Source: Bacteroidales bacterium
GTDB lineage: Bacteria; Bacteroidota; Bacteroidia; Bacteroidales; DTU049
Length of the DNA: 64,000 nt
Assembly: GCA_012520175.1 (NCBI GenBank)
Contig: JAAYOU010000065.1
Location: 7,895 to 71,894 of the forward strand
Direction of reading: 5' to 3'
The first letter of the stretch is position 1, and each line of letters begins with the position of its first letter. A model generated the notes under the pieces. It made no database searches. It was given only the letters and a program-made list of their open reading frames with translations, and was not told where the DNA came from. This document shows positions 13,939 to 64,000 of this stretch, piece after piece. The position numbers and the translations under genes were made by a program.

Positions 13939-13950
13939 AAATTGATTTGA

Positions 13951-15304: not shown

Positions 15305-16930
15305 ATGAAAAAAACAGTATTTACCCTTTTTGTATGTTTAATGTTTATTAATGCTTATACACAACTAAGTATTAATGGAACTCCTAAAAGTTTTTCTTAT
15401 AAAACTCATTCAGTTGTACCAACTGTTTATTTAACAAAGCCAGATATGAGCAAAGTTGAAGCCGAAGACGCAAAAGCTGATGCTATGGGCAGAGCTTATC
15501 GTACAGGCATTTTGCTAAACACAAATATTAATCCGCAAAATAGTGGCGTTTGGGATTTTTTACCAGACGGTTCTGCAATATGGAGAGTGTCTGTTAAATC
15601 TGATGGAGCTAAAGCAATTGGACTGTATTTCTCAGATTGGTTTATGACACCAGGAGTTGAAGTTTATGCATATTCTCCAGACAAAAAATATGTTATAGGT
15701 GCTTTTACAGAGTTGAATAATATTGATTTTCGCACTATGGCAATGGATAAAATTCCAGGAGAAGAAGCTGTTTTGGAAGTTTTTGTGCCAGATAGAAATC
15801 AAAATTTTGACCTTGAATTAAATCAAATCTCTTATTTTTATAGAGGAGTTGACATGGAAAACAAAGCCAAAGTTGGTGCTTGCCAAGTAAATGTGGCTTG
15901 TAGCGAGGGTGACGATTGGAGAGATCAAATTAGAAGTGTTGCTAAAATAAATATGGTGTTAAGTACTGGAACATATATGTGTTCAGGAGCCTTAGTGAAT
16001 AATATAAAAGAAGACTGCACTCCATATTTTTTAACAGCAGATCACTGCTCTGTTGGTGATGACTTAGTTCCTGTTACTCCAGCACAACTATCACAATGGA
16101 TATTTACTTTTAAATATCAATCTAATGGCTGTAGTGGAACATATAGCACTTCTCATAAATCTTATACTGGTGCAACATATAAGGCTTCAGACTCTTATGG
16201 AGAGAATAAAACAGGATCAGATTTTTTTCTTTGTGTCTTAAATAATAATCCAGAACATGTAAATGCGTATTATGCAGGTTGGTCTTATTTAACAACCCCC
16301 TCTGCAAGTGGTGTATCTGTTCACCATCCAGATGGAGCAATAAAGAAAATCAGTACTTACGCAAGTGTTTTATTGAATTGCGGAACTCACTGGTGTGTTT
16401 CTTGGGCTCCAACAGCTAATGGGCATGGAGTAACAGAAGGTGGTTCTTCTGGTTCGCCGCTTTTTGATAAAGACAAGAGAATTGTTGGAACATTAACAGG
16501 TGGCTCTTCTACATGTGCAGAACCAACTAAAGTGGATATTTATGGAAAAATGTCAACACACTGGGCTAGTGCAGGAAGTGCTTCCGATAAACAATTAAAA
16601 TATTGGCTTGACCCTACAGGAGCTTCTAGTGGCAAATTAGATGGTAGGAATTGCTTTGTTGGATTGAATGATGTTGATTATGTAAGAGCAAATATTCAAA
16701 TATTCCCAAATCCTGCTAGCGAAGTACTAAACATTGATTTTTCCAATTATAATATAGAAAAAGGAGTTTTATCTATTTCAAATCTATTAGGAAAAACAGT
16801 TATTGAATCAGATATGGGAAATTATACCGATGTTGTAAAAATAAATATAAATGATTTAGCACCGGGAATGTATTTCGTGAAAATTAAATCGAACACGGAA
16901 AATGTTTCCATACCTTTTATAGTTCAATAA
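15305..16930 (+). CDS. Secreted S1-family (lysyl-endopeptidase-like) serine protease with T9SS C-terminal domain
   Basis: Catalytic His context LTADHC. Catalytic Ser context EGGSSGSPLF. C-terminal IQIFPNPASEVLNIDF...GMYFVKIKS CTD. Confidence 0.7.
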   Translation: MKKTVFTLFVCLMFINAYTQLSINGTPKSFSYKTHSVVPTVYLTKPDMSKVEAEDAKADAMGRAYRTGILLNTNINPQNSGVWDFLPDGSAIWRVSVKSDGAKAIGLYFSDWFMTPGVEVYAYSPDKKYVIGAFTELNNIDFRTMAMDKIPGEEAVLEVFVPDRNQNFDLELNQISYFYRGVDMENKAKVGACQVNVACSEGDDWRDQIRSVAKINMVLSTGTYMCSGALVNNIKEDCTPYFLTADHCSVGDDLVPVTPAQLSQWIFTFKYQSNGCSGTYSTSHKSYTGATYKASDSYGENKTGSDFFLCVLNNNPEHVNAYYAGWSYLTTPSASGVSVHHPDGAIKKISTYASVLLNCGTHWCVSWAPTANGHGVTEGGSSGSPLFDKDKRIVGTLTGGSSTCAEPTKVDIYGKMSTHWASAGSASDKQLKYWLDPTGASSGKLDGRNCFVGLNDVDYVRANIQIFPNPASEVLNIDFSNYNIEKGVLSISNLLGKTVIESDMGNYTDVVKININDLAPGMYFVKIKSNTENVSIPFIVQ

Positions 16931-16946
16931 ATATAAAGTTTTTCGC

Positions 16947-18770
16947 ATGGCTTTTTACTCGTTGGCTAAATGGGTGAGTTTATTGAGAGAAAAAGGAGAA
17001 GTATGCGAAATAAATGAATATGTAAGCCCAGAGCTAGAAATATCAGAATTTGCAGACAGAATTACAAATTCTAATAATAGTAAACCTTTGTTATTTAAAA
17101 ATAATGGCACTGATTTTCCAGTATTAGTTAATCTTTTTGCAAATTCTGACTTAACAAATCGCTTTCTTAATCTTGAAAATGAAAAAGGAGCAATAAATAG
17201 AATTGAAAAAATTCTGTCATTGCTTAAATCTAAACCTAGATTTTCTATAGATTTCTTTTCTTCTCTTTGGGAAATGAGAAATTTGAGTCCTAAAAAATTA
17301 AGAAAATCAGGGACTTGTATGGAAAACGAAATGGATTTTCCTGATATAAGCAAATTTCCTGTCATTAAGAGCTGGCCCTTTGATGGCGGGAGGTTTTTAA
17401 CGCTGCCTCTTGTGCATACAATTGACCCTGAAACAGGAATTCAAAATATGGGAATGTATAGAATGCAGGTTTTTGATGGCAAATCAACGGGAATGCACTG
17501 GCATAAGCATAAAGGCGGAGCAGCACATTTTGAAAAATGGAAAAAATTGGGCAAGCAAATGCCTGTTACAGTAACACTTGGGGGAGACCCAACATTTATT
17601 TATGCTGCTACAGCCCCAGTGCCAGACGGCTTTTCAGAATACATGCTTGCAGGGTTTCTTAAAAACGAAAAAGTAAAATTGGTAAAAAGCAAAACCAATG
17701 ATATTTGGATTCCTGAATGCTCAGACTTTGTAATAGAAGGTTATATCGACACTTCAGAGCCTTTTAGAACAGAAGGTCCTTTTGGCGACCACACAGGATT
17801 TTACTCTATTCCTGATGAATATCCAGTTTTTCATATCACAAAAATATCTTTTCGCAAAAATGCTGTTTATCCTGCAACAGTTGTTGGAGTACCAAAAAAA
17901 GAAGATAGGTTTTTTGGAATGGCAACAACGAAAATATTTTTACCATTAATAAAAAACATTTTAATTCCGGAAATTACAGATATGTTTTTGCCCGAGGAAG
18001 GCGGTTTCCATAATTTAGCTTTAGTTAAAACTCAAAAAAAATATAGAGGGCAAGCAGAAAAGATTTTTCATGCTATGTGGGGAGCAGGGCAGATGATGTT
18101 TATGAAAAATATTTTTGTTTTTGATGAAAATGTAGATTTAAGAAACCTTGCTTCAGTTTTAAGTGCGATAGATAATAATTTTGATCCATCGTCAGGATTG
18201 ATTTTTTCCAAAGGTCCATCAGATGTGCTTGACCATGCTGCTAAAGAATTTTCTTTTGGAGGAAAAGCTGGTTTTGATTGCACAGCAAAAGAAAAAACAT
18301 TAAAAGAAAATAATATTTCTTCGTTTTTTAAAGGGTGTGAAAATATTAAAAAAATAAGTAACTCAATTTTTGTATTGTTTACAAACTCTCCTGTCGAAGA
18401 CTCGAATTCTATAATTCAAGGTTTTAAAAACGAAAAAAGCATTAATAATAGAGGAATTTTAATAATTACCGATTTGAATACGCAAGGTTTTTCAAACAGT
18501 AAAATCTTATGGTATATTCTTGCAAACATTGACCCAAACAGAGATTATTCAATAATTTGCAATGGACAATCAAACAGTCTTTTATTAATTAACGCTAGCG
18601 TAAAAGATAAAAAAGCTGTTCCACATGGAAATTGGCCCGCCATTACAATTATGAGTGATGAAATAATCAAAAAAGTTGATTTAATGTGGAACCGATGTGA
18701 TACTGGAGAGTTTGTTGAAAGTCCATCAAAAGAATTTTCAATGTTTAAAAGCAATTCGCACTATATGTAG
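16947..18770 (+). CDS. UbiD-family decarboxylase (menaquinone-biosynthesis decarboxylase type)
   Basis: 607 aa. UbiD-like core (GMYRMQVFDGKSTGMHWHKHKGGA, GPFGDHTGFYS). Confidence 0.75.
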   Translation: MAFYSLAKWVSLLREKGEVCEINEYVSPELEISEFADRITNSNNSKPLLFKNNGTDFPVLVNLFANSDLTNRFLNLENEKGAINRIEKILSLLKSKPRFSIDFFSSLWEMRNLSPKKLRKSGTCMENEMDFPDISKFPVIKSWPFDGGRFLTLPLVHTIDPETGIQNMGMYRMQVFDGKSTGMHWHKHKGGAAHFEKWKKLGKQMPVTVTLGGDPTFIYAATAPVPDGFSEYMLAGFLKNEKVKLVKSKTNDIWIPECSDFVIEGYIDTSEPFRTEGPFGDHTGFYSIPDEYPVFHITKISFRKNAVYPATVVGVPKKEDRFFGMATTKIFLPLIKNILIPEITDMFLPEEGGFHNLALVKTQKKYRGQAEKIFHAMWGAGQMMFMKNIFVFDENVDLRNLASVLSAIDNNFDPSSGLIFSKGPSDVLDHAAKEFSFGGKAGFDCTAKEKTLKENNISSFFKGCENIKKISNSIFVLFTNSPVEDSNSIIQGFKNEKSINNRGILIITDLNTQGFSNSKILWYILANIDPNRDYSIICNGQSNSLLLINASVKDKKAVPHGNWPAITIMSDEIIKKVDLMWNRCDTGEFVESPSKEFSMFKSNSHYM

Positions 18771-45170: not shown

Positions 45171-45974
45171 ATGAAATTTTTAATAATTATATTATTTCTT
45201 TTTCAATTACCCGTTTTGGCACAGAACATTACGCTTGTAAATGAATTTGAATTACCCACAAATCCTGTAGCAATTTCTGTAGATCCTTTTGGCTCTGTTT
45301 ATACAGTATTTATAAATGGCAATATAATAAAAACAGATACATCAGGAAAGCAGTTGGCAACCCACATACGAAAAACTAATAGTAGTGATTGGCAGATAGA
45401 CGCTTCTAATCCATATAAAATAATTATCTTCAATCGCGACCTGCAAATTGTAGATATTTACAATTCCGACTTTGGAAAAATAAACACAATAGATTTGTCA
45501 TTGCTGGATATTGGCGATGTAGCCTTATGCTGCATTTCTTATAATAATTCTTTTTGGATATTGAGCTCATCAAATAATGAACTATATCATTTTTCAGAAA
45601 ATTTGGAAATAATTTCGAAAACAAATCTAAACTTAACAAATGTTGAAATTGATAATTACAGCAATTGCATTTTAAAAGAATCTGGTTCTAAATTATTGCT
45701 TGCAGAAGCTAAAAAGCAAGCTTATATTTTTGATATTTATGGAAATTTTTCTAATAAATTCAGTAAAAATTCAGATATTTGGGAGATAGACAAAGATATT
45801 GTTTATTATATTCAAAACGACACACTACAAGCCTATCACATGCGTTTGCACGAAGAAATTGTTTTGCCCGTTAATACAAGCAACATAAATAAATTTATAA
45901 TTAACGGAAATTGGATTTCGATTTTATCCAAAAATAAAATATCTTTGTTTAGAAAAAATAATATTAAAAAATAA
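45171..45974 (+). CDS. Secreted hypothetical protein
   Basis: The track ORF begins at 45012, inside the tRNA. I prefer ATG 45171 (MKFLIIILFLFQLPVLAQ signal peptide). 267 aa, beta-rich, no recognisable motif. Confidence 0.5.
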   Translation: MKFLIIILFLFQLPVLAQNITLVNEFELPTNPVAISVDPFGSVYTVFINGNIIKTDTSGKQLATHIRKTNSSDWQIDASNPYKIIIFNRDLQIVDIYNSDFGKINTIDLSLLDIGDVALCCISYNNSFWILSSSNNELYHFSENLEIISKTNLNLTNVEIDNYSNCILKESGSKLLLAEAKKQAYIFDIYGNFSNKFSKNSDIWEIDKDIVYYIQNDTLQAYHMRLHEEIVLPVNTSNINKFIINGNWISILSKNKISLFRKNNIKK

Positions 45975-51228: not shown

Positions 51229-52146
51229 ATGAGCAAATTCAATTTTTTAAAAGAATATTTTAATCTTTCAAAAACTGAAAAAGCAGGATTATGGCTTTTG
51301 TTGGTGATTTTAGTTGTGATAATTATTTTTTCAAAATTATCTTTTTATTATAAGTCTGATATAAAAAAGACAGATTTTTCTGAATATGAAAAGCAAATTT
51401 CTGAATGGCGGTCAAGCATAAGCCAAGATGATTCGTATTTAAAACGCACCTATACAGACCTTGATGCTCCGCAGTTTTCAGCCACAAAATCAAAATTAAC
51501 GCCCTTTCCTTTTGACCCTAACAATATTGACGCAGCAGGCTTAAAATCTTTAGGATTAGCCGACCGTCAAATAAAATCAATTTTAAATTACAGGCAAAAA
51601 GGCGGGGTTTTTTACATAAAAAGCGATTTTGCAAAAATTTATACAATTAGTAGAGATGAATACAATGTGCTAGAACCATATATATCTTTGCCGATTAGCA
51701 GAGAAACTCGCAAAAGTTTTGAAAATAAAAAATTTGAGAAAAAAGAAGTTGCAAAAGTTGAATTAAATTCTGCTGATACTGCGGCGTTGAGAAAAATAAG
51801 AGGAATAGGTCCAGCGTTTTCAATGCGAATTGTGAAATACAGGAATTTGCTTGGCGGTTTTGTCAATATAAATCAATTGAAAGAGGTGAAAGGAATAGAC
51901 TCCTTAAAATATGCAGAAATATCTCCATACATGTTTGTAAATCCGTATATAATAAGGAAAATAAATATAAATACGGTTACATTTGAAGAGTTAAAAAAGC
52001 ACCCTTATTTTGGCTACAACATTTCTCTTTCAATAATTAATTACCGAAAACAGCACGGAGACTACACTTCAATAACGGATTTGAAGAAGCTCGCTCTTAT
52101 TACAGATGAGGTTTATAATAGAATAGCTCCGTATTTAACCATATAA
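51229..52146 (+). CDS. comEA: ComEA-like helix-hairpin-helix DNA-binding membrane protein
   Basis: 305 aa. N-terminal TM segment. Several HhH units (LKSLGLADRQIKSIL, LRKIRGIGPAFSMRIVKYR, ELKKHPYFGYNISLSIINYR). Confidence 0.7.
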   Translation: MSKFNFLKEYFNLSKTEKAGLWLLLVILVVIIIFSKLSFYYKSDIKKTDFSEYEKQISEWRSSISQDDSYLKRTYTDLDAPQFSATKSKLTPFPFDPNNIDAAGLKSLGLADRQIKSILNYRQKGGVFYIKSDFAKIYTISRDEYNVLEPYISLPISRETRKSFENKKFEKKEVAKVELNSADTAALRKIRGIGPAFSMRIVKYRNLLGGFVNINQLKEVKGIDSLKYAEISPYMFVNPYIIRKININTVTFEELKKHPYFGYNISLSIINYRKQHGDYTSITDLKKLALITDEVYNRIAPYLTI

Positions 52147-52150
52147 AAAA

Positions 52151-52765
52151 TCAGAAAAAATTTACTAATGGGAAAAGAAATAGCCCATATAAATGAAATC
52201 TTGGAATTCTAAATAGATTCCACAAAAGCATTTGCTTTTTAGGATAGTTGAGCATCCCGACCACAACCATAATTATACTATAAGGAAGAGGAGTAAGTGC
52301 TGCTGCTGCAATTAGCCATCCGCCCCATTTTCTTGAGTTTCTTATGTGTTTTTCAAATCTAAGAGTAAAATAGTCATTTACTCGTTTGTTTTTTCTAATA
52401 AGAAAGCCAATGCTGTAAGAGATTGTTCCTGCAATATAAGATAATACTGCTAAAATACTTAAATATAGCCAAGGGTGAGACAATCCTCCGCACCAAATTA
52501 TAAATAAATCTGATGGAATTGGGCTGAGCAAACTTTCCGAGCATAAAAAAATTAGTAAAACAACCCAAATTTTTACATTTTCAACGATATAATTAAAAAT
52601 TCCTTCAATGTCAAGAAATGTTTTTTCGGCAATTATTAATAGGATAATTATAACAGTTAAAATTAGCAAAAAATTTAAGAGACCTTTTCCAACTTCTTGA
52701 TAAAAACCAGTTCTTTTAAAATATAAAAATCGTAGTCGCCAGCGTTTAAAAAAATTTTTCTTCAT
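52151..52765 (-). CDS. VTT-domain (DedA/YqaA-like) membrane protein
   Basis: 204 aa polytopic protein. SESLLSPIPSDLF fits the E-x-x-x-x-P-x-P-x-D/E VTT motif. Confidence 0.5.
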   Translation of the reverse strand: MKKNFFKRWRLRFLYFKRTGFYQEVGKGLLNFLLILTVIIILLIIAEKTFLDIEGIFNYIVENVKIWVVLLIFLCSESLLSPIPSDLFIIWCGGLSHPWLYLSILAVLSYIAGTISYSIGFLIRKNKRVNDYFTLRFEKHIRNSRKWGGWLIAAAALTPLPYSIIMVVVGMLNYPKKQMLLWNLFRIPRFHLYGLFLFPLVNFF

Positions 52766-52800
52766 AAAATAAATTCACATGCAAATATATAAATTGCAAT

Positions 52801-53589
52801 TTATTTATTCAGCAAAAAAGAAATAAAATTTTTTACATTAATTAAATTTGTTAAGTCGGCGATTAGGAAAAGAAATACAAAAATCATAACAATTCTGATG
52901 ATTTTGTTTCCATTTTTAATAGCTAGGCGGGAGGCTATAAAAGCTCCGATAACATTTCCGATAGCGTGAATTAGTCCATATTTCCAAACTACTTGGTCGT
53001 TGGCTATAAAAACAATTAAAGAAAAAGGAATATACAGCAACACAAGTAAGTTTTTCATTGCATTTGCGTGCAAAAGGTCGTGTCCAAGCCCTAAAACAAT
53101 AACTGCAAGCAAATAATATCCAAGCCCAACATGAATAAATCCGCCGTAAATTCCAATTAAAAAAAACAACAAATAATACCATTTTTTTATGGGTTTTTTT
53201 AGCAGTTCAGCATTTTCTTTAAGCCATAAAGATGGTTTTATAAACATAAAAATGACCATGGAAGCCATAATTACAATAAAGCAATATCTAAAAATTTCTT
53301 CATTAATTTTAATTACGATAAAAGAGCCAACAATAGAGCCGATAACGAGAGGAATAGCAATTTTTATACTTTTTTTCCAATCAATAAGTTTGTTATTTTG
53401 GAAAGAGGAAACAGATGTTAAGGTTTGAAATAACACAGCGACACGATTTGTCCCATTTGCTACAGAAAGTGGCAGCCCAAGCCAAGATAAAACAGATAAG
53501 GAAATAATTGTTGCTCCGCCGGACAAAGTGTTTATAAATCCGACGAAAAGACCAGAACATATTAGAGCAATAACAACATGTATTTCCAT
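52801..53589 (-). CDS. TauE/SafE-family anion (sulfite-type) exporter
   Basis: 262 aa, about 8 TM segments. Internal duplication with GGATIISLSVL / GGFIHVGLGY-type segments. Confidence 0.65.
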   Translation of the reverse strand: MEIHVVIALICSGLFVGFINTLSGGATIISLSVLSWLGLPLSVANGTNRVAVLFQTLTSVSSFQNNKLIDWKKSIKIAIPLVIGSIVGSFIVIKINEEIFRYCFIVIMASMVIFMFIKPSLWLKENAELLKKPIKKWYYLLFFLIGIYGGFIHVGLGYYLLAVIVLGLGHDLLHANAMKNLLVLLYIPFSLIVFIANDQVVWKYGLIHAIGNVIGAFIASRLAIKNGNKIIRIVMIFVFLFLIADLTNLINVKNFISFLLNK

Positions 53590-53677
53590 GGTTTATATTT
53601 ATCGTATTTCTAAAGCTATATTTCTGTTAAAATGTTTCGGACAAATTTGCAAAAATAGCTTTTTGAATGTTGTTTTT

Positions 53678-55123
53678 TTAAGAATTGCGGTTATATTCGT
53701 TTTTTATAAAGTTATATAAAAGTCTTACGCCTACTCCTGTGCTGCCTTTGGGCCAATAATTCCATGTTTTTTCAAGAAACGCAGGACCTGCAATATCAAG
53801 GTGTATATATGGATAATCTGTGAATTTTTCTAGAAATTTACCAGCGGTTATTGCTCCAGCGTATCTGCCACCAGAGTTTGAAAAGTCGGCAATGTCGGAA
53901 CTCATGTCGTCAAAATATTCGTCCCAAAAAGGAAATTCAACAACGCGCTCAAACACTTTGTCTGCTGAGTTTTGCAATCTTTCAAAATAGCCGGAAGCTC
54001 CTGATTCCATGCCTACGATGGCATAATGTCCAATTGCTACATGTGCAGCACCTGTAAGGGTTGCTATATCAATTACAACAGATGGATTGTATTTCTGTGC
54101 AAAAGCTAGTGCGTCAGCAAGAATTAATCTGCCCTCTGCATCTGTATTTGTTATTTCTACTGTTTTTCCATTCATCATTGTAAGCACATCTCCCGGAGCA
54201 TAGGCGTTTTCTCCCGGTCTGTTGTCAGTTGCAGGAATTAGCGCTATCACATGAGCAGGAATTTGCATTTCTGCAATAAGGTGAATAGCTCCAGCCACGG
54301 CAGCTCCGCCAGCCATGTCGCTTTTCATGTCCGACATATAATTTCCGGGCTTAAGGTTTAGTCCGCCAGTATCGTACATTACTCCTTTACCTACAAAAAC
54401 ATAAGGTTTTTTGTTAAAATGCTTTTCGGGTTTGTATTCCAAAATTGTAAATGTTGGCTCGTCAATGCTACCGCGATTCACACCTAGCAAACCGCCCATT
54501 TTTAAAGATTTAATTTTTTGCTTTGTTAAAACTTCAACTTTTACATCGGTGTCCTTAAAAAAATCCTTTATGTAATTAGGAAATGTTAAAGATGTGAGCT
54601 CTGAAGGAATTTCATTTACCATGTTTCTTACAAAGTTTACAGCTTTTTGAGTACGCATTAGCTCAAAAACATGTATGTTTTCAACTAAACTTTGCCTTAT
54701 AAGTATAGATTTTAAGTGCTTTTTAGGCTCGTTGGCTGTTTTATATTTTGTAAACTCGTAGTTCCCAAGCAAAATGCCTTCAATAAAATATTTTGAAAGC
54801 GATTTTTCTTCAATATAAACATCTAAGGAAATTTCTTCAATTTTTTCTTTATTAATAAATTTCAAAACGTTATTGCCTGTTCGTCTTATCTTTTCAATGT
54901 CGTTTTCGTTTTTTATTTTTTCTGAAACAAAAGCAACAATGTCAAATTTTGATAATCTATTGAAGAAAACAAAATCTTGTTTTTCTTTGCGTAAGCTGTT
55001 TTTTATGTAAGAAATTTCTTCTTTTGAAAAAGCTCCAGAAGGCAGATTGTCAACGGTATTAATTAGATATATTGTTGTTCCCGTTGTATATTTTCGCTTG
55101 TATAATCCTATTTTTATATCCAT
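53678..55123 (-). CDS. pepA: Leucyl aminopeptidase (M17 family)
   Basis: 481 aa. VGKGVMYDTGG, MKSDMAGGAAV and NTDAEGRLILAD signatures. Confidence 0.9.
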   Translation of the reverse strand: MDIKIGLYKRKYTTGTTIYLINTVDNLPSGAFSKEEISYIKNSLRKEKQDFVFFNRLSKFDIVAFVSEKIKNENDIEKIRRTGNNVLKFINKEKIEEISLDVYIEEKSLSKYFIEGILLGNYEFTKYKTANEPKKHLKSILIRQSLVENIHVFELMRTQKAVNFVRNMVNEIPSELTSLTFPNYIKDFFKDTDVKVEVLTKQKIKSLKMGGLLGVNRGSIDEPTFTILEYKPEKHFNKKPYVFVGKGVMYDTGGLNLKPGNYMSDMKSDMAGGAAVAGAIHLIAEMQIPAHVIALIPATDNRPGENAYAPGDVLTMMNGKTVEITNTDAEGRLILADALAFAQKYNPSVVIDIATLTGAAHVAIGHYAIVGMESGASGYFERLQNSADKVFERVVEFPFWDEYFDDMSSDIADFSNSGGRYAGAITAGKFLEKFTDYPYIHLDIAGPAFLEKTWNYWPKGSTGVGVRLLYNFIKNEYNRNS

Positions 55124-55163
55124 AAAAGTTTTTTTGCAAAATTATAAAACAAAAAGCTCTTTT

Positions 55164-55898
55164 TCAAAAATGTCGTGTAAAAAAAACAAAGAGGTAAATG
55201 AAAAGAAGCATAGCTGAAAAAGCTTTTACTAGCAGTTTGTTTTCTAATTTTTTTGTTTTGTTAATTAAAATAAAAATGGTTAGAACTGTAATTATAATCA
55301 CAATTATCCACAGTTCTTTCACTCTGTCTTCAGATTTAAAAAATTCTCCATCAAGAGTATAGCCATTTACAAGATTTAGCAGGGGAGTGATATTCAGCGT
55401 TATTTCTTTTCCGTCGAGGCTTATGTTTTCAAAACCTTTGGCAGCGTTAAATTTTAGATTATTAACGGAGTATGAGCCGTTCGGGTTTATGTGAGCTATG
55501 CCGGGCAAGTTTTCCTTAGGTAAAAAATTATCAGTAAGGATAAAAAAGCAAAAAGCAAGTATGACAAAATTAAACCATTTGGGCCACAAAATGCTGTGCA
55601 TGGGCATATTAAAGGCGTCATTTTTTTGCTTAAATTCGTTGTAACGCATTTGGGCATATTGTTTTGCCCTGTTTCTAGCTTCGTCTTCCCATGCTTTTTG
55701 GGAGTTGTTGATATTTACTTTTTTGTATTTTGAGGTTAATACTTCATAAGCCTCTGTAACTTTAATAAAATTTTCAGCTGCATTTTCCTCTTGACTTACA
55801 TCAGGGTGGTATTTGCGAGCCAATTCTTTATAGCGCCGCTTTATTTCTGTTGTAGAAGCATTTTCGGGAACGCCAAGAATTTCGTGATATATTGACAA
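55164..55898 (-). CDS. J-domain (DnaJ-like) membrane protein
   Basis: 244 aa. YHEILGVPENASTTEIKRRYKELARKYHPD J-domain followed by TM segments. Confidence 0.75.
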   Translation of the reverse strand: MSIYHEILGVPENASTTEIKRRYKELARKYHPDVSQEENAAENFIKVTEAYEVLTSKYKKVNINNSQKAWEDEARNRAKQYAQMRYNEFKQKNDAFNMPMHSILWPKWFNFVILAFCFFILTDNFLPKENLPGIAHINPNGSYSVNNLKFNAAKGFENISLDGKEITLNITPLLNLVNGYTLDGEFFKSEDRVKELWIIVIIITVLTIFILINKTKKLENKLLVKAFSAMLLFIYLFVFFTRHF

Positions 55899-55912
55899 AT
55901 TATATTATTTTT

Positions 55913-57007
55913 TTAAGTAAACTGTTCTCCTTTTTCAATTAAAACATCGTTTACATATTGGCGAATGTTTTGCTCGTCATCTTTTCGAACCACCATTAAA
56001 ATATTGTCAGATTCTACAACAATATAATCTTCTAAACCTTGAAGCAGAACCATTTTTTCCAAAGGCATGTGAATTAAGCAATTTTTAGAATCATACAGCA
56101 TCACATTTTTTCCAATAATTGCATTGCCATTATTGTCTCTTTTTCGATTTTCGTATAGCGAGCCCCATGTGCCAAGGTCGCTCCAACCGAAGTCGGAAAT
56201 AATAACGAAAACATTTTTTGCTTTTTCCATAACAGCATAGTCTATTGAAATGTTTTTGCAGAGCATGTAAGTGTTATAGATAAAATCTTCTTCATTGATG
56301 GTTCCGTAAATATTTTTACCTTTTTCGAAAAGATCATTTATTTCAGGAGCATATTTTGCAAGAGCATTTATTATTGCTTTTGCTGTCCAAATAAAAATGC
56401 CGCTATTCCATAAAAAATCGCCACTTTTAATAAATTCATTAGCAATTTCAAGCTGCGGCTTTTCAGTAAAAGTTTTTACTTTTCTAATTCGGGCATCTTT
56501 TTCTGGTTTTTCTTTGTCAAAATATTGAATATATCCATATCCAGTATCCGGTCTTGTAGGAGTAATGCCTAATGTAATAAGGCGATTATCTTTAGATGCA
56601 GCATCGAGTGCAGTTTTTAAATGCTCCGAAAAAGATTTTTCATCAAAAATAATATGATCAGAAGGGCATACAACCATAGAAGCATCTGGATCTGCGGAAT
56701 ATATTCTGTGGGCTGCATATGCAATGCAAGGAGCTGTGTTTTTACGAGAGGGTTCTGAAAGAATATTTTCTTCTTTTATTTCAGGAAGTTGTTGTTTTAC
56801 AAGTTCAACGTAGTTTTTATTTGTAACCACTAATATATTTTCTGCGGGGCAAATGTCTAGCAATCTATCAAAAGTTAGCTGTATAAGCGTTTTACCCATG
56901 CCTAAAACGTCTATAAATTGTTTTGGTTTTAAATTTCTACTCATGGGCCAAAAGCGAGTGCCTAGCCCTCCTGCCATTATTACACAATATGTTTTTCCAG
57001 TTGTCAT
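55913..57007 (-). CDS. manC: Mannose-1-phosphate guanylyltransferase
   Basis: Track ORF starts at TTG 57034. I prefer ATG 57007 (MTTGKTYCVIMAGGLGTRFWPMSR nucleotidyltransferase motif). No C-terminal cupin or isomerase domain. Confidence 0.8.
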   Translation of the reverse strand: MTTGKTYCVIMAGGLGTRFWPMSRNLKPKQFIDVLGMGKTLIQLTFDRLLDICPAENILVVTNKNYVELVKQQLPEIKEENILSEPSRKNTAPCIAYAAHRIYSADPDASMVVCPSDHIIFDEKSFSEHLKTALDAASKDNRLITLGITPTRPDTGYGYIQYFDKEKPEKDARIRKVKTFTEKPQLEIANEFIKSGDFLWNSGIFIWTAKAIINALAKYAPEINDLFEKGKNIYGTINEEDFIYNTYMLCKNISIDYAVMEKAKNVFVIISDFGWSDLGTWGSLYENRKRDNNGNAIIGKNVMLYDSKNCLIHMPLEKMVLLQGLEDYIVVESDNILMVVRKDDEQNIRQYVNDVLIEKGEQFT

Positions 57008-57222
57008 TAATACATCATTTTTGCAAAAGTACAATAATTATTTTGTTGTTAGCAATTAATATTTTTTTGTACAAAGCCAAATATTAACTGTTTTTGTATA
57101 AGGCATTTAATTAGGTGGTAAAATCAAAATTAATTTTTATTTGAATATACGGTTTTAATCTCTAGAAAAATGTGTATCTTTACTGCACTTTAAAATGCGT
57201 TATTAAAAAATATAAAAATATT

Positions 57223-58953
57223 ATGAAAGAGATAAAAATAAGAGATTTGACACTTCGTGATGGACAGCAATCTTTGTTTGCAACGCGAATGAATCAGGCG
57301 CAAGTTGACTTGGTTTTGCCTTTGTTTAAAGAAGCAAAGTTTTATGCAATGGAAGTTTGGGGCGGAGCAGTGCCAGATAGTGTGATGAGATACTTAAAGG
57401 AAGACCCATGGGAAAGGCTTGCTAAGGTTAAAGAAGGAATAGGAGATGCATCTAAACTCACAGCACTTTCTCGCGGAAGAAATCTTTTTGGCTACAATCC
57501 TTATCCAGAAGATGTAATAGAAGGATTTATTAAGCATACAATTGGTACAGGAATAGATATTTTGCGTATTTTCGACGCTCTCAATGATATGAACAATATT
57601 AAAAGTTCAATTGGGTATGTGCAAAAATATGGAGGAATTGCTGATGGTACAATAAGTTATACTATTGATCCTAAATTAGAAAGAAAAAAGAAGTTTTTCG
57701 GATTAATAAAAGAGAAAGAACAGCCTCCGTTTTTTACTGTTGAATATTTTGTTGGCAAAGCAAAGGAAATTGAGGCTATGGGTGCGGATATGATTACCCT
57801 TAAAGACATGGCTGGATTGGTTGATCACGAAAGTTCTGCAAAAATAATTCGTGCATTGAAAAACAATGTGAAAATTCCTGTTGATTTCCATACTCACTCA
57901 ACTCCGGGATATGGCTTAGCATCAGTACTTACAGCTATTATGAACGGTGCGGATATTGTAGATACCAATATGATGCCGTTTGCTGGCGGTAGTGCGGCTC
58001 CTGCTTATGAACTAATTCATCTGTTTTGTCAAAAATTAGGAATAGAAACAAATGTAAATATTGATGTTCTAAAAAAATTAAGCGACAAGCTAGTGGAAAT
58101 ACGCAAGGATATGTCAAACCATGATAGTTACAAGATTTTCCCTAGAATGTTTGACTTGAAAAATGACAAATTGCCTAAAGATATTGAGTTAATCTTTGAT
58201 AAAGCTATTGAATCTGTGGAAAAAGAAAAATACGAAGATGTGCTGAAATATTGTAATGAAATAGAAGCGTATTTTAATTTCCCTGCTGCAAATGAGATGG
58301 TGAAAAATGCTCAAATTCCGGGTGGAATGTACACAAATATGTTGGCACAGCTAAAAGCTGCAAATTTTGAAAAATTATTGCCACGAGTTTTGCAAGCAGT
58401 ACCACAAGTTAGAGTTAATGCTGGTTCTATTCCGCTTGTAACGCCAACAAGTCAAATTGTGGGGGTGCAGGCTGTAAATTGCATTTTAGACGAAAATAAA
58501 GGATTGCCTTGGTTTTCAAATGTAAATACACAATATATAAACTTGGTAAAAGGAATGTATGGAAAAACTCCAATTCCGATAGATCCTGAATTTAGAGAAA
58601 AAATTACAGGTTCACGCGAAGAAGTACCATATAATTCAGATTCTTATAAACCTCAGGAAAATAAAGTTTTAGAACAGTTTGGAAACAGAAATTTGATTAA
58701 TTCAGAAAAAGACCAACTTTTAATGGAGCTTTTCCCTGCTGTTGCTGAAACATTTTTGACAGAACGAGCTCAAAACGAATGGAATGCGGAGCAGGCTGCT
58801 ATCAAAGCTGAGCAAGATAGAATTGAAGCTGAAAAACAAGCTGCAATACAAGCTGAAAAGGCTGCATACAATGCTCTTAGCAAAGCCGAAAAAGAACAAC
58901 GTCTCCATGATGGGCTTTACAACTATCCATGGACTTCAAAAATGGAAAAATAG
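57223..58953 (+). CDS. Carboxyltransferase subunit of the oxaloacetate decarboxylase alpha / pyruvate carboxylase B / transcarboxylase 5S type, lacking a biotinyl domain
   Basis: Start moved to ATG 57223 (MKEIKIRDLTLRDGQQS). HMGL-like TIM barrel (DFHTHSTPG) and PYC_OADA-like conserved region. The C-terminus is an Ala/Glu/Lys/Gln-rich helix with no EAMKM-type biotinylation motif. Confidence 0.7.
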   Translation: MKEIKIRDLTLRDGQQSLFATRMNQAQVDLVLPLFKEAKFYAMEVWGGAVPDSVMRYLKEDPWERLAKVKEGIGDASKLTALSRGRNLFGYNPYPEDVIEGFIKHTIGTGIDILRIFDALNDMNNIKSSIGYVQKYGGIADGTISYTIDPKLERKKKFFGLIKEKEQPPFFTVEYFVGKAKEIEAMGADMITLKDMAGLVDHESSAKIIRALKNNVKIPVDFHTHSTPGYGLASVLTAIMNGADIVDTNMMPFAGGSAAPAYELIHLFCQKLGIETNVNIDVLKKLSDKLVEIRKDMSNHDSYKIFPRMFDLKNDKLPKDIELIFDKAIESVEKEKYEDVLKYCNEIEAYFNFPAANEMVKNAQIPGGMYTNMLAQLKAANFEKLLPRVLQAVPQVRVNAGSIPLVTPTSQIVGVQAVNCILDENKGLPWFSNVNTQYINLVKGMYGKTPIPIDPEFREKITGSREEVPYNSDSYKPQENKVLEQFGNRNLINSEKDQLLMELFPAVAETFLTERAQNEWNAEQAAIKAEQDRIEAEKQAAIQAEKAAYNALSKAEKEQRLHDGLYNYPWTSKMEK

Positions 58954-58967
58954 GGAATACCTATTTG

Positions 58968-60449
58968 CTAAAATTGAAAATAAATAAAAGGTTGTACGGA
59001 TTCGCTTTTTAGTTGTAAACAAAGCTGTATCAGTAAAACAAACGCTATTGCTTTAACAAGAAATGGAACTTTTTTAATGTAAAATTGTTCCATTTTTGGA
59101 TATATATAGTCTGGAATTGCGTGGATAGCAAAGCCAACTAGCAATAAGATTACAAATAAGTAGCGAATATTCCAAAATGGTTGCAAATAAGCCCAGTCGA
59201 AGTCTGCAAATATTTGCGAAATCATTGTTGTGGCTGTTGAAAAGTCATTTGCACGGAAAAATATCCATAAAACGGCTACAAAATGGAATGTGATAAACCA
59301 TGAGAAGAAATTGTAAACTGCATTGCCAGTTCTTGATTTGAAATCCTCTTTAACAACGTATTTTTTCCATGCTTTGTGAATAACTAATCCAACGCCATGC
59401 ATTCCTCCCCAAAAAACAAATTTCCACGAAGCTCCGTGCCAAAGTCCGCCTAAAAGCATGGTTATGAATAAGTTTATATATTGTCTTAGCTTTCCTTTTC
59501 TGTTTCCACCAAGCGAAATGTATAAATAATCTCGTAGCCACGATGAAAGACTAATATGCCAACGCCGCCAAAATTCAGTAACAGATAGAGATTGATAAGG
59601 TTTGTTAAAGTTTATTCCTAAGTTAAAGCCTAACAAAAGCCCAATACCTATTGCCATATCGCTGTATCCGCTAAAATCGCAATAAATTTGCAATGTGTAG
59701 CCATAAGCAGCCATGAGATTTTCAAATCCGCTGTATGTGCTAGGAGCTGCAAAAACTAAGTCGTTGTATTGTGAAATAAAATCTGCTAACACAGCTTTTT
59801 TAAACAATCCTTGCATTATGAGGAAAAAGCCACGATGAATTTCCTCAGGTTTTAAAATTATATTGTTTTTTAATTGTGGAAGGAAGAATTTTGCACGCAC
59901 AATAGGTCCAGCAACTAAATGAGGGAAAAAGCTCATGTAAAAAGCGTAGTCAAGAAAGTTGTTTGTTGGCTCTAACTCTCTTCTGTAGATGTCAATAATA
60001 TAACTTAATGTCTGGAAAGTGTAAAAAGAAATTCCTATTGGAAGAAAAATATCAAGCGGCTCAAATGGCTCTCCTCGTAGGAATGCGATGTTTTCTAAGA
60101 GGAAATTTGTGTATTTGAAGTAAGCTAGTAATCCAAGGCTTGTGCACAACGATATGACTAGCCAAAATGTTCTGAACTTTTGTTTTTTAGCCTTAAAAAT
60201 AGCCCAAGCAAGACCATAATCGGCTGCTAATGTGAAAAGTAAAATAAACAGATACCAGCCACTAGATTTGTAGTAAAAGAAAAAAGAAAATCCTAAAACA
60301 TATAGTGTGCGCGAAAGTTTGTTGTTATACAAAAAAGCATAACCTATTAAAAACAGAGTAAAGAAAAATAAAAATTGCCCACTATTAAACAGCATTGGAC
60401 TTGCTGAATCGTAGGAAAACAAATCATGTATTACATTACTCCATCTCAT
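58968..60449 (-). CDS. MBOAT-family membrane O-acyltransferase (AlgI/DltB-like)
   Basis: 493 aa polytopic protein. FWRRWHISLSSWLRDYLYI and the conserved His region GLWHGASW. Confidence 0.85.
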   Translation of the reverse strand: MRWSNVIHDLFSYDSASPMLFNSGQFLFFFTLFLIGYAFLYNNKLSRTLYVLGFSFFFYYKSSGWYLFILLFTLAADYGLAWAIFKAKKQKFRTFWLVISLCTSLGLLAYFKYTNFLLENIAFLRGEPFEPLDIFLPIGISFYTFQTLSYIIDIYRRELEPTNNFLDYAFYMSFFPHLVAGPIVRAKFFLPQLKNNIILKPEEIHRGFFLIMQGLFKKAVLADFISQYNDLVFAAPSTYSGFENLMAAYGYTLQIYCDFSGYSDMAIGIGLLLGFNLGINFNKPYQSLSVTEFWRRWHISLSSWLRDYLYISLGGNRKGKLRQYINLFITMLLGGLWHGASWKFVFWGGMHGVGLVIHKAWKKYVVKEDFKSRTGNAVYNFFSWFITFHFVAVLWIFFRANDFSTATTMISQIFADFDWAYLQPFWNIRYLFVILLLVGFAIHAIPDYIYPKMEQFYIKKVPFLVKAIAFVLLIQLCLQLKSESVQPFIYFQF

Positions 60450-61255
60450 TAAAAAGGCGCATTTGGTTGTAAAATTTCTGTTGGAGGAATTTTATTAAAA
60501 AATGTGTCTGGAGGGCTCATTAAAATTTTCTTTTCTGCTTTGTTCTGTAAGAATACCGCAATGGAATCCATCCATTTAAATGCAGAAGCTTTCTTAGGAT
60601 GTGCACCATCTTTTGTTCGTTCATAGCTTAAATCTTTAGATGGAAAATATCTTTTACTACCTGTATAGTGCAGAATTAAATCATTTATTCCTGTGTCGTC
60701 TTTCCAATTAGGTGGTCCAATCCATAAAAAAGGTAGGGTGTCCATTTGAGCTATAATGTGCCTCACATATTCTGCTCGTTCAGTTTTTATATCTCTTATA
60801 AAAAGCTCATTTGCTCCTAAAACTAGCAAAACGTAAGAAGGATTATGCTTTTTTATAAAATGTTTTAACGTGTCGCACTGTCCATACCACAGAGTTGATG
60901 AGCTATACCAAATAACAGTGTTCATGGAATGCCCATTTTTTCTGCAATAATCGTTAAGTCTTATTCTTAAAAACTCCAACATTGAATCGCCAATGAGTAA
61001 AAATCTTTGAGAAGAAGAATCTACTTTATCATCTGTTTTTTCTTTGCTAGAGACATAAGCCATGAGACCAACGGGTAATTCTTCGGGATAGAAAAACTTT
61101 TTTATACCTATGTCTTTAAACTTGTGAGGTCCAATTTTAAAATCAATGTTTGCAAAAGACAGTAATCCAAATAAAACCAAAGCTCCAGCAAGTAATGCTA
61201 CATACTGGAAGAAAGCTTTCGGTGGCGGATTTTTTCCAAAAAAGTTTAATTTCAT
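60449..61255 (-). CDS. SGNH/GDSL-fold protein, probable periplasmic partner of the MBOAT acyltransferase
   Basis: Start moved to ATG 61255 (MKLNFFGK...). One TM segment. SGNH blocks LLIGDSM, GANE and DGAHP. Its stop overlaps the MBOAT start by 1 nt. Confidence 0.65.
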   Translation of the reverse strand: MKLNFFGKNPPPKAFFQYVALLAGALVLFGLLSFANIDFKIGPHKFKDIGIKKFFYPEELPVGLMAYVSSKEKTDDKVDSSSQRFLLIGDSMLEFLRIRLNDYCRKNGHSMNTVIWYSSSTLWYGQCDTLKHFIKKHNPSYVLLVLGANELFIRDIKTERAEYVRHIIAQMDTLPFLWIGPPNWKDDTGINDLILHYTGSKRYFPSKDLSYERTKDGAHPKKASAFKWMDSIAVFLQNKAEKKILMSPPDTFFNKIPPTEILQPNAPF

Positions 61256-61268
61256 TGTGCAAAAATAA

Positions 61269-62039
61269 TTATTTCTGCTTTTTTTGAGTAAATAACCAAC
61301 GAATGTTTTCAACATTTGAATAAACATTGTCCCAGCAGAAGTGCCCAAGGTCAGTAAAAATGAGCGATTTAGCGTTGCCGTTGCATTTTTTTATTGCATT
61401 AACCATATTTGTTGTTCTTGCTGGAACCACAAGTTTGTCTAGCTTTCCATGAAAAGCCTTTATTGGAATATTTTTTAATAAACAAGCTGTATTTTCGTCT
61501 CCGCCGCCACAAATTGGCATTGCAGCTGCAAAAAAATCAGGTCGCCTCACCATTGCGTCCCAAGTGCCGAAGCCGCCCATAGATATTCCCGTTATGTAAA
61601 TTCTGTTTGTATCTATCGGATATTCTTTTATTAAGGAATCAAGCATTAAGAATGTTAGATTTAGCGGCGTAGAAATGTTTTCAGGGATTGTATGTTTTTG
61701 CAATTTCCAGTCAACTTCTACCCAGCGCTTGTTTTCTGGACATTGAGGAGCAACAATTATACATTTGTATTGCTCTTTAGTGCTATCAAGCATGAAATAT
61801 TTTACACCATGAAGTAATTGCTTTTCATTGTCTGTGCCTCGCTCTCCAGCACCATGTAAAAAAACTAACAATGGTAAATTTTCATTTATTGAATCAGGCA
61901 CATACAGGCGGAAAGGCAGTTCTCCACTAGCAGAAGAAAAAGTTTTTTTTGCAAACAACGCCTCCCAAGCAGTCTGCGACCTGAGCGTGCAAAAATGAAT
62001 AAATAAAAAACACAAAGCAAGTCTTAAAAAAACCCTCAT
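61269..62039 (-). CDS. Secreted alpha/beta-hydrolase (carboxylesterase/dienelactone-hydrolase-like)
   Basis: 256 aa. Signal peptide. HGAGERG, nucleophile elbow GISMGGFG, and a C-terminal His region DLGHF. Confidence 0.65.
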   Translation of the reverse strand: MRVFLRLALCFLFIHFCTLRSQTAWEALFAKKTFSSASGELPFRLYVPDSINENLPLLVFLHGAGERGTDNEKQLLHGVKYFMLDSTKEQYKCIIVAPQCPENKRWVEVDWKLQKHTIPENISTPLNLTFLMLDSLIKEYPIDTNRIYITGISMGGFGTWDAMVRRPDFFAAAMPICGGGDENTACLLKNIPIKAFHGKLDKLVVPARTTNMVNAIKKCNGNAKSLIFTDLGHFCWDNVYSNVENIRWLFTQKKQK

Positions 62040-62104
62040 AAAAACTCTTTAAAAAATCTACCCCAAAGATACATTTATTATGCCATAAATAATTAGGATT
62101 TTCT

Positions 62105-62209
62105 AAAAAAAAGCGTATAAACGAAAACGAGGCGAGTTACCCCGCCCCATCTTAAATGTTTTCACAACGGAATAATCCTTATTGTGAATTGCTTCAAAAT
62201 TTGTACAAC
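62105..62209 (-). ncRNA. Candidate tracrRNA, divergent from cas9 (5' end uncertain by ~10 nt)
   Basis: Minus-strand RNA GUUGUACAAAUUUUGAAGCAAUUCACAAUAAGGAUUAUUCCGUUGUGAAAACAUUUAAGAUGGGGCGGGGUAACUCGCCUCGUUUUCGUUUAUACGCUUUUUUUU. The AAUAAGG...UCCGUU nexus-like element resembles the S. pyogenes tracrRNA AAUAAGGCUAGUCCGUU. There is a GC hairpin GGGGCG/CGCCUC and a terminal U8. Confidence 0.6.
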
Positions 62210-62241
62210 AAAAATAATATTTTTTTTAAAAGTAAACAAAA
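62209..62241 (-). promoter_or_regulatory. Bacteroidota-type promoter (TTTG-N21-TATTTTTG) for the tracrRNA candidate
   Basis: On the minus strand, TTTG (plus coordinates 62238-62241) and TAnnTTTG match TATTTTTG (62209-62216) lie immediately 5' of the anti-repeat-like sequence. Confidence 0.4.
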
Positions 62242-62283
62242 AAATTTATAAATTCACCAAATAATTTTAATTTGATAGATATT

Positions 62284-64000
62284 ATGAAAAGAATTTTAGG
62301 GCTAGACTTAGGTACAAATAGCATTGGTTGGGCTTTGGTGGAAATTGACCATGAAAAAAGAGTTGTAAAAATAATTGGACTAGGTTCACGTATTTTACCA
62401 ATGGATGCAGGAGAAATTGGAGACTTTGAACGCGGTGGAAAAATAAAAAGCTCTGCGGCACAGCGGACGGAAAAAAGAGGAGCTAGGCGATTAAATGAAA
62501 GATATTTGCTGCGACGAGATAGATTGCACTTAGTTCTTGACTTACTTGATGCTTTGCCAACTCATTACAAACTTGAAATTGATTTCACAAATTCAAAAGG
62601 TGAAAAATGTGGTCAATTTAAAACAAATAAAGAACCTAAGTTAGCGTACTTACCAAAACATAAGAGCGAAAGAGCAAAATTTCTTTTTATGGATTCATAT
62701 GAAGAAATGTTAGATAATATAAATGATGATAACGTTAAAAACATTAAAGGAAAAAGAATTCCTTATGATTGGACATTATATTATTTACGGCAAAAAGCTT
62801 TATCAGAGGAGATAAGCTTAGAAGAATTAGCTTGGGTTTTATTGAGTTATAACCAAAAAAGAGGATATGAAAAAACAGAAGTAGAGGATAAGTCAACAAA
62901 AGATACAGAATTTGTTGAAGAATTAGATTTGCGTGTTTTAGATGTGTTTGAAAAGGAAAAAGATGGAAAAAAATATTTTGAAATACATTTAGATGGGAAT
63001 GATAAGTTTATATATAATGAATATTCTGATATTCAAATGACATTTAAAGGTGATTTAAAAGAAGTTGTAAAAATATCAAAAGTTGATGATGAGGGTAATA
63101 CAGATGAACAAAAGACAGAGTATAAAATCATTGATATTTATTCTTTAGAAATTCAAAAGTTTGATTACGAGAAAATAGATGCAAAACACAAATATATTTT
63201 GACATATAAAAATGGATGGATTGAAACAAAATTAACGGCAAACTATTATAGCTTTAAATATAAAAATGCTCTCAATAAACCTTACGATTATATTGTAGAA
63301 ACTGTTTATGATAATCACGGAAATATTAAAACTCAGCAAGGCAAAGAAAGAAAACTTAGAGAGCCTGATTTTGGAGATAATTCATCTGATTGGACATTAT
63401 TAAAAAAGAAAACCGAAAAAGAAGCATTGGCTTTTAACTCTGAAAACGGCTTTCTTCATGACAATGGAGATGTAAAAAAGTACATTTCACCAAAAATTTA
63501 TAGCGTACTTAAAAACGATGCTAAAAAAGGGACTCAAACTAAAATAATTGGAGGAATATTCCAAGTTGTGGATAGAGAATTTTATCGTGAAGAGTTGAAT
63601 CAAATTATTTCTACACAAAAACAATTTCATAATAGCTTGAAAGATAGAAAAATATTTGAACAATGTGTAAAAACACTATATCCAAAGAATGAAAGTCATC
63701 AAAAGTCTCTATTAGAAAATAAAGATGCAATACAGAATTTATTAGTAGAAGACATTCTTTTGTATCAAAGACCACTCAAGAGTAAAAAGTCAGAAATCGC
63801 TGATTGTAAATATGAAATACGATATTGGAAAGATGTTGTTGACAAAGAAACCGGTGAGATAAAAACAAAGCAACAACCTGTTTTTATTAAAGTTGTTTCC
63901 AAGTCACATCCATATTTTCAGGAATTTAGAATTTGGGATAAAATACATAACTTAAAATTAATTCAATTAGAGAAAGAAGTTAATGGTCATAAACAGACTA
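62284..64000 (+). CDS. cas9: Cas9 (type II CRISPR endonuclease), N-terminal ~572 codons; continues beyond window end
   Basis: Not in the track because the ORF is open-ended. My translation from ATG 62284: MKRILGLDLGTNSIGWALVEIDHEKR... (RuvC-I with catalytic Asp), Arg-rich bridge helix AAQRTEKRGARRLNERYLLRRDRL, later ILLYQRPLKSKKSEIADCKYE. I saw no stop codon through 64000. Confidence 0.9.
   Translation, partial: MKRILGLDLGTNSIGWALVEIDHEKRVVKIIGLGSRILPMDAGEIGDFERGGKIKSSAAQRTEKRGARRLNERYLLRRDRLHLVLDLLDALPTHYKLEIDFTNSKGEKCGQFKTNKEPKLAYLPKHKSERAKFLFMDSYEEMLDNINDDNVKNIKGKRIPYDWTLYYLRQKALSEEISLEELAWVLLSYNQKRGYEKTEVEDKSTKDTEFVEELDLRVLDVFEKEKDGKKYFEIHLDGNDKFIYNEYSDIQMTFKGDLKEVVKISKVDDEGNTDEQKTEYKIIDIYSLEIQKFDYEKIDAKHKYILTYKNGWIETKLTANYYSFKYKNALNKPYDYIVETVYDNHGNIKTQQGKERKLREPDFGDNSSDWTLLKKKTEKEALAFNSENGFLHDNGDVKKYISPKIYSVLKNDAKKGTQTKIIGGIFQVVDREFYREELNQIISTQKQFHNSLKDRKIFEQCVKTLYPKNESHQKSLLENKDAIQNLLVEDILLYQRPLKSKKSEIADCKYEIRYWKDVVDKETGEIKTKQQPVFIKVVSKSHPYFQEFRIWDKIHNLKLIQLEKEVNGHKQT

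Follow-up and report, generated by a model that had tools for sequence, protein, structure and literature searches.

Type II-C systems dominate among the CRISPR-Cas systems of Bacteroidota (PMC12669027), and in the Cas9 loci of Bacteroidetes the repeats can be as long as 48 nt (Chylinski 2013, PMC3737331). The arrays of II-C systems are transcribed from promoters encoded in the repeats, toward the variable end (PMC8092290, PMC10309648, PMC12080349). In the present study, we analyzed a stretch of 64,000 nucleotides from a Bacteroidales contig (JAAYOU010000065.1; this whole stretch is hereafter called the window), at the end of which a cas9 gene begins, preceded on the opposite strand by a predicted gene for a trans-activating CRISPR RNA (tracrRNA). 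We consider it highly probable that this edge of the window is the upstream end of an intact, currently active type II-C system of a Bacteroidota from anaerobic digesters; the digester or biogas origin was deduced from the sample names of the identical and related contigs, and the nearest Cas9 relative as well as the type of promoter point to a Bacteroidota, probably of the Bacteroidales.

The best match with a solved structure was CbCas9, the II-C Cas9 of Chryseobacterium (PDB 8IYQ/8WR4; HMMER, E=7e-206; Foldseek, E=4e-21), which comes from the same phylum and subtype. The HMMER match covers the RuvC, bridge-helix, REC, HNH, and C-terminal regions at about 31% identity, but CbCas9 has 1,442 aa, whereas the present protein has 1,790 aa. 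CbCas9 works with an accessory PIN-domain protein, PcrIIC1 (Zhang et al. 2024, Nature, as cited in PMC13153721 and PMC11871365); the locus studied here has no gene between cas9 and cas1. The II-C systems of Flavobacterium columnare and F. psychrophilum (PMC8092290, PMC10309648) likewise are cas9-cas1-cas2-array loci of Bacteroidota with a 3' protospacer-adjacent motif (PAM) and a predicted tracrRNA, and they follow the same TTG/TAnnTTTG promoter logic, with transcription of the array inferred to start from repeat-encoded promoters and to proceed to the variable end. However, the F. columnare repeats are 36 nt long, compared with 47 nt here, the Flavobacterium PAM is NNNNNTAAA, compared with NRATAR directly after the protospacer here, and, unlike theirs, the present Cas9 belongs to a clade of proteins of about 1.8 thousand aa. 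The II-C systems of Neisseria meningitidis and Campylobacter jejuni (Zhang 2013 and Dugar 2013, as cited in PMC3737331 and PMC12080349) likewise have a minimal cas9-cas1-cas2 operon and, as far as these citations describe them, an array transcribed opposite to the cas operon, a promoter in each repeat, and new spacers at the transcription-distal last repeat, which is the arrangement that we infer for the present locus. Their Cas9s, which are proteobacterial and campylobacterotal, have about 1,000-1,080 aa, their repeats have 36 nt, and their -10 boxes are of the sigma-70 type, whereas the boxes of the present locus are of the Bacteroidota type and are predicted to be used as such.

The features within the window, by position and strand, are the following:
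62284..64000, + strand: 5' part of cas9, encoding aa 1-572 of 1,790, with RuvC-I (D8), the bridge helix, an all-beta insertion, and REC helices
62105..62206, - strand: predicted tracrRNA gene, with the 5' end at about 62206 (within 3 nt on either side) and the 3' end at about 62120 (UUUU) or 62105 (U8)
62209..62240, - strand: putative promoter boxes TTTG-N20-TATTTTTG, the -7 box ending 3 nt before the anti-repeat
62181..62206, - strand: anti-repeat GUACAAAUUUUGAAGCAAUUCACAAU, pairing with repeat positions 1-27
62158..62186, - strand: core CACAAUAAGGAUUAUUCCGUUGUGAAAAC, including the nexus-like hairpin GGAUUAUUCC, identical in 8 of 9 loci
62124..62153, - strand: GC-rich terminal hairpin of 13 bp, as folded; the hairpins of relatives differ in sequence
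62105..62112, - strand: U8 tract, candidate final terminator tail

The frame from the ATG at 62284 on the + strand is free of stop codons up to base 64000, that is, over 572 codons, as the original prediction, made from the window alone, had claimed. It had also pointed out that cas9 was absent from the list of open reading frames (ORFs), and the ORF lister had indeed dropped this frame, for the sole reason that it runs past the window end. Everything beyond base 64000 was read on a public contig (ENA ERZ773356 NODE_711, L001; the same contig in cas9 orientation is L019), fetched via the esterase gene adjoining the RNA candidate. This contig is 100% identical to window positions 51269-64000 (12.7 kb), and the window position equals the L019 position plus 52283. 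On it, the frame meets no early stop, and cas9 occupies window-equivalent positions 62284-67656 and encodes 1,790 aa. The protein begins with MKRILGLDLGTNSIGWAL, which is RuvC motif I including D8; ILGLDLGTNSIGWAL spans aa 4-18. The Pfam bridge helix (Cas9-BH) matches aa 61-95 (E=6.8e-9), and YQRPLKSKKSEIADC at aa 494-508 is aligned with YQRPLRSQKSSVSNC of CbCas9, so that the RuvC-I motif, the Arg-rich bridge helix, and the YQRPLKSKKSEIADC block of the original prediction are all located in aa 1-572. In the full-length protein, Pfam HNH_4 (E=6.7e-15) and RuvC_III (E=7.7e-35) match together with Cas9-BH, and NCBIfam TIGR01865 does so with E=3.8e-85 (287 bits; cutoff 100). All of the catalytic motifs are present, namely D8, IHVEVGRE (E899), DH at 1036-1037, and HHALD at 1230-1234 (with H1231 and D1234); the protein thus has the hallmark of type II, one large effector with a RuvC split into I-III and an inserted HNH. 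The II-D model NF049971 scored 55 bits, far under its cutoff of 375. The nearest solved relative, CbCas9, is of subtype II-C and the named relatives are Bacteroidota Cas9s, a grouping that is suggested by these similarity searches.

The original prediction had placed the remainder of the system past base 64000, where cas1, cas2, and an array were found. The order of the locus is tracrRNA (divergent), cas9, cas1, cas2, a leader region of 108 nt, and the array. The cas1 gene (310 aa) overlaps cas9 by 4 nt and is followed by cas2 (101 aa); Cas1 matches the type II model TIGR03639 (cas1_NMENI; E=1e-94), and Cas2 matches TIGR01573. Neither csn2, as in II-A, nor cas4, as in II-B and II-D, is among the gene calls of L019 (cas9, cas1, cas2, and the array), which leaves cas1 and cas2 as the adaptation module, and by gene content the subtype is II-C. 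The array (window-equivalent 69031-70536) consists of 20 repeats, each 47 nt long, with 19 spacers of 29-30 nt between them. The repeats, which read GTTGTGAATTGCTTTCAAAATTTTGTATCTTTGTGATTATAAACAAC on the strand opposite to cas9 and are of the GTTGTG type, show no variation other than at a single A/G position, where repeats 4-8 differ from the rest. The repeat predicted from the window agrees with the real one apart from two 1-nt insertions, and the proposed assignment to the Bacteroidota II-C systems with long GTTGTG-type repeats is borne out by the 47-nt repeat and by an adaptation module of cas1 and cas2 only. The repeat length, together with the finding that the named relatives and the five loci taken from genomes are all from Bacteroidota, places the locus in the long-repeat Bacteroidota subcluster. 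Within the window there is no other array, and tblastn with the Cas1 and Cas2 of the locus itself found nothing similar; these searches agree with the earlier statement that the upstream 62 kb holds no cas1, cas2, or array, although divergent cas1 and cas2 genes would escape them.

The RNA candidate lies 75-180 nt from cas9 on the opposite strand, and the anti-repeat, the nexus-like segment, the GC hairpin, and the U8 tract that had been described for it all exist at their positions. The minus strand reads AAGGAUUAUUCCGUUGUGAAAAC from 62180 to 62158, of which 62180 to 62163 is AAGGAUUAUUCCGUUGUG. The expectation that the repeat of the array would pair with the proposed anti-repeat also held, with 24-25 bp from 62206 to 62181; the duplex comprises 24 Watson-Crick pairs, one G-U pair, and two 1-nt bulges, with a calculated energy of -27.5 kcal/mol. 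Two details need correction. The promoter boxes are present at 62209-62240, but their spacing is N20 instead of N21. The hairpin and the U8 tail both exist, but UUUU directly follows the hairpin, and U8 lies 11 nt from it. The order of the modules (anti-repeat, AAUAAGG-loop-CCGUU nexus, terminal hairpin or hairpins, and U-tail) is presumably the same as in the tracrRNA and single-guide RNA scaffold of Streptococcus pyogenes. However, there is no sequence similarity to that RNA outside the nexus, and the S. pyogenes system is of type II-A, with a leader-driven array and csn2.

We compared nine loci, namely the present one, five from genomes, and four found via Cas9 relatives, less one fragment. 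The Cas9s of the eight further loci, from Cyclobacteriaceae, Reichenbachiella, Leeuwenhoekiella, Echinicola, Sinomicrobium, Winogradskyella, and two Bacteroidales metagenome-assembled genomes (MAGs), are 33-81% identical to the present one. The same module was found upstream of cas9 on the opposite strand in all nine. Eight of them share the 29-nt core CACAAUAAGGAUUAUUCCGUUGUGAAAAC without any difference, whereas an additional U in the ninth (L012) gives GAAUAAC. In every locus with a readable array (6/6), the anti-repeat fits the repeat of that locus, and the two differ in step from locus to locus (AAUUGC/GCAAUU, AUUGGC/GCCAAU, and AUUAGC/CUAAU). In 9/9 loci, 3 nt separate the end of a TAnnTT(T/G)N box from the start of the complementarity, and in every locus the module closes with a GC-rich hairpin of locus-specific sequence and then a U-run. 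Each tracrRNA was folded separately; the MAFFT alignment failed to align the variable hairpins structurally. The evidence of the window alone is only suggestive for the RNA, and it is the proximity to cas9 and the comparative evidence that make the candidate solid. The prediction that 62105-62206 is a tracrRNA gene is thus supported by a module conserved in nine loci and by an anti-repeat that follows the cognate repeat in six of them.

Several observations were made beside this module. In the window at 62040-62104 (- strand), between U8 and the esterase start at 62039, there is a second TAnnTTTG box (TATCTTTG). The esterase gene is thus probably transcribed from a promoter of its own, located immediately downstream of the terminator of the tracrRNA; read-through of that terminator would run into the esterase gene. 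In Echinicola soli (L013), an 83-aa ORF lies between the tracrRNA and cas9, and an IS21-type element (IstA and IstB; 11856-14168) lies between cas2 and the array. In Sinomicrobium oceani (L014, 10414-11136), an extra gene of 240 aa lies between cas9 and cas1; it has no Pfam or PADLOC match and is absent from the present locus. As this is the position of reported II-C accessory factors, it is possibly an accessory gene.

The repeat also contains GTTG-N21-TATCTTTG, which is near the consensus of the Bacteroidota -33/-7 pair, and in the relatives, too, a TAnnTT(T/G)N box is retained, at about positions 23-33 of the repeat. Since the anti-repeat is on the minus strand, the CRISPR RNAs (crRNAs) should come from the minus strand, antisense to cas9. 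This orientation was supported independently by the targets of the spacers. The IMG/VR database was scanned for exact words with spacers 16-19, and the spacers were then compared with tolerance of mismatches. Spacers 16-19 all match the same viral contigs, and spacers 11-19 (9/19) could be placed on the following three:
L016: UViG 3300049640_000304
L017: UViG 3300049638_001087
L018: UViG 3300049640_001174

Genes for terminase, major head, protease, sheath, and tape-measure proteins are present on L017, which therefore represents a tailed phage. Five of the spacers match perfectly, spacers 11, 12, and 14 match with one to two mismatches, and spacer 15 matches only when a difference in the number of TTTTTG repeats is allowed. 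The 3' flanks of the eight distinct protospacers are CAATAA, GAATAA, GGATAA, TAATAA, GAATAG, TAATAA, TGATAA, and GAATAG; that is, NRATAR directly follows in 8/8 (chance of about 1e-17), and the 5' flanks are not conserved. Cas9 requires a PAM on the 3' side, and thus the side on which NRATAR is found agrees with the crRNA orientation deduced from the anti-repeat. A BLAST search of all 19 spacers against GenBank phages gave no match, and the repeat was not encountered when JGI metagenome contigs were scanned for it.

The spacers that match the phage are confined to the cas2-proximal half of the array. Two strains (L002 and L003) that are 99.8-99.9% identical have a different spacer next to cas2, and therefore new spacers appear to enter at the cas2 end. 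In L020, from another biogas sample, with a 100% identical Cas9, four spacers were lost. As for the protospacers, those of spacers 12 and 14 have single mismatches; in the case of spacer 14, the mismatch lies 4 nt from the PAM, and the phage may have acquired it to escape. Spacers 11 and 15 overlap one T-rich site of the phage. In the leader (L019 16640-16747; window-equivalent 68923-69030), the crRNA strand has GTTGTGAGG 31 nt past the last repeat, a 7-nt match to the repeat start at spacer distance. This match may represent what is left of a repeat or may have a bearing on the formation of extraneous crRNA (for the concept, see PMC12080349).

Taken in order, the proposed mechanism is as follows. 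The tracrRNA would start about 4 nt after the TAnnTTTG box and end at the hairpin and the U-tracts. The crRNAs would be made from the strand opposite to cas9, each from a repeat-embedded promoter (GTTG-N21-TATCTTTG), toward the cas2-proximal end. A crRNA, consisting of a spacer and the 5' part of the next repeat, would pair with the tracrRNA and be loaded into Cas9, and the loaded Cas9 would cut both DNA strands at a matching protospacer followed by NRATAR.

The present Cas9 is about 350 residues longer than CbCas9, and the excess is distributed over at least five insertions: +86 aa at 243-364, about +54 aa within 365-744, +33 aa at 745-815, +31 aa at 1282-1337, and +85 aa at 1444-1532. The original prediction had described a Lys/Glu-rich insertion of the REC type. 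The charged bias is real (K 15%, E 12%, and D 11% at aa of about 195-365), but the segment is kept in 30 relatives and is not a linker: AlphaFold2 predicts aa of about 206-365 to be an all-beta domain, with a predicted local distance difference test (pLDDT) score of 85-93. Besides CbCas9, Foldseek with the N-terminal model gave OB-fold-like matches to the beta insertion, all of them weak (E >= 5e-3), and for this reason we assign no function to it. The size of the protein is typical of its clade, as 112 of the 120 best protein clusters have 1,700-1,970 aa. These clusters come from Bacteroidales, Flavobacteriales, Cytophagales, and Chitinophagales, many are already named Cas9 at NCBI, and the extra residues are conserved over more than 100 protein clusters. 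The nearest relative, with 81% identity, is from a Bacteroidales MAG. A search of the literature found no description or experimental characterisation of this clade, which does not prove that none exists.

Several points weigh against the reading given above. Within the window, the TTTG-N-TAnnTTTG motif occurs no more often than expected by chance (7 matches; 9.25 expected), the alignment score of 20 between repeat and anti-repeat was reached in 5 of 60 shuffles of the full AT-rich 64 kb, and a site at 45321-45370 gives a similar duplex energy, by a patchwork of loops and without the rest of the module. A strict terminator scan found nothing; that scan and the one for sigma-70 promoters are uninformative here, because Bacteroidota promoters are in use and U8 lies 11 nt from the hairpin. 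Rfam, searched over 61000-64000 at E<=10, gave two chance snoRNA matches and no tracrRNA family, as could be anticipated, since the conservation of tracrRNAs does not extend from one Cas9 lineage to another (PMC3737331). The ends of the tracrRNA and the crRNAs, as well as the use of the repeat-embedded promoters, are deduced from motifs, and the part of the locus past base 64000 belongs to the identical public contig and not to the window. One could imagine that the segment 62105-62206 represents a degenerate orphan repeat or matches by chance, the true tracrRNA being encoded elsewhere, the more so as the alignment score is unexceptional against whole-window shuffles, Rfam is silent, and degenerate copies of the repeat do occur elsewhere in the locus. 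However, the 29-nt core is not derived from the repeat, except for GUUGUGAA, and yet is identical in 8/9 loci whose Cas9s are 33-81% identical. The position, the strand, the -7 box, and the downstream hairpin with its U-run are always the same, and there is no other repeat-complementary site near the cas genes. Furthermore, the AAGG-N-CCGUU nexus recalls that of the tracrRNA of S. pyogenes. Thus, an orphan repeat or chance match seems to us very improbable, and the tracrRNA is the preferred reading of this segment.

That the locus is a decayed or domesticated remnant, whose Cas9 no longer takes part in immunity, could be suspected from a Cas9 that exceeds its closest solved relative by about 350 residues, although nothing positive speaks for this reading. 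These extra residues are, however, kept over more than 100 protein clusters, and the catalytic motifs, cas1, and cas2 are all intact. The 20 repeats are uniform save for the A/G position in repeats 4-8, the spacers match a co-occurring type of phage, five of them perfectly and with a conserved PAM, and spacers have turned over between 99.9%-identical strains. Accordingly, a remnant is scarcely credible. The same extra residues may be taken to mean instead that the clade of about 1.8 thousand aa is a functionally distinct sub-branch, in which the additional domains provide an activity or bind a partner that has no counterpart in the characterised II-C Cas9s. The number of the insertions (at least five, the largest being the +86 aa at 243-364 and the +85 aa at 1444-1532) would fit this, as would the first of them, a confidently predicted and clade-conserved beta domain with merely weak OB-fold-like matches; moreover, an engineered Cas9 of 1,780 aa was termed in 2025 the largest experimentally characterised one (PMC11871365). 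On the other hand, the architecture, the tracrRNA, the PAM side, and the spacer length are all standard, the locus is without an accessory gene, and expansion of the REC lobe is common among Cas9s, mostly without new chemistry. We therefore consider a distinct sub-branch unlikely, and the locus is a real, ordinary II-C system; such loci are common and already annotated.

The locus had been said to abut an acylation cluster with no mobile-element gene in between, and the neighbours fit this, as upstream of the tracrRNA there are an alpha/beta-hydrolase, a protein of 268-299 aa of no known function, and an MBOAT acyltransferase. Past the array, L019 continues with a RhuM-family gene and a 74-aa ORF, and then with genes for methionine and histidine metabolism. 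The loci of the relatives are in unrelated neighbourhoods, and thus the locus is not syntenic across the clade.

Past the old end of the array, two degenerate repeats were found at L001 58-104 and 350-396 (+ strand; window-equivalent, about 71644-71982). Both are 40/47 identical to the consensus and have three derived substitutions in common. Their changes cluster in the 5' half that pairs with the tracrRNA, and the TAnnTTTG box is kept as TATATTTG. Each degenerate repeat lies 27-36 nt upstream of a co-oriented ORF; the first ORF has 74 aa (L001 132-356), and the second is the RhuM-family gene (L001 433-1440; Pfam, E=8.5e-111; PADLOC candidate defence PDC-S05, E=6e-159). There are thus two gene-sized 'spacers', of 245 and 1,107 nt, bracketed by repeats. 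A further insert, of 481 nt (16871-17351), is present in L020, where it takes the second place from the cas2 end and is flanked by two perfect repeats, with the same spacer duplicated on both sides. It contains a truncated ORF and a 105-aa ORF, and a stretch of 78 nt shares 93.6% identity with a promoter and the beginning of a gene in the phage contig L018; no counterpart of the ORF within the insert turned up in viral contigs. Genuine uptake of phage DNA and a chimera of the MEGAHIT assembly are both conceivable origins of the L020 insert. One speculative explanation is that the repeats serve as capture sites and promoters for gene-sized DNA, so that the array would be partly integron-like, and that, separately, the extra domains of the Cas9s of about 1.8 thousand aa add a function; we regard this as quite unlikely.

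For the family, the results provide an in-silico parts list, consisting of Cas9, tracrRNA, repeat, orientation, and the candidate PAM NRATAR, for a widespread clade of Bacteroidota Cas9s of about 1,750-1,970 aa. Their conceptual novelty is low and their practical value is modest, and the repeat-bracketed inserts outside the window are the most unusual sight. For the organism, they link a Bacteroidales population of digesters to a specific tailed phage.

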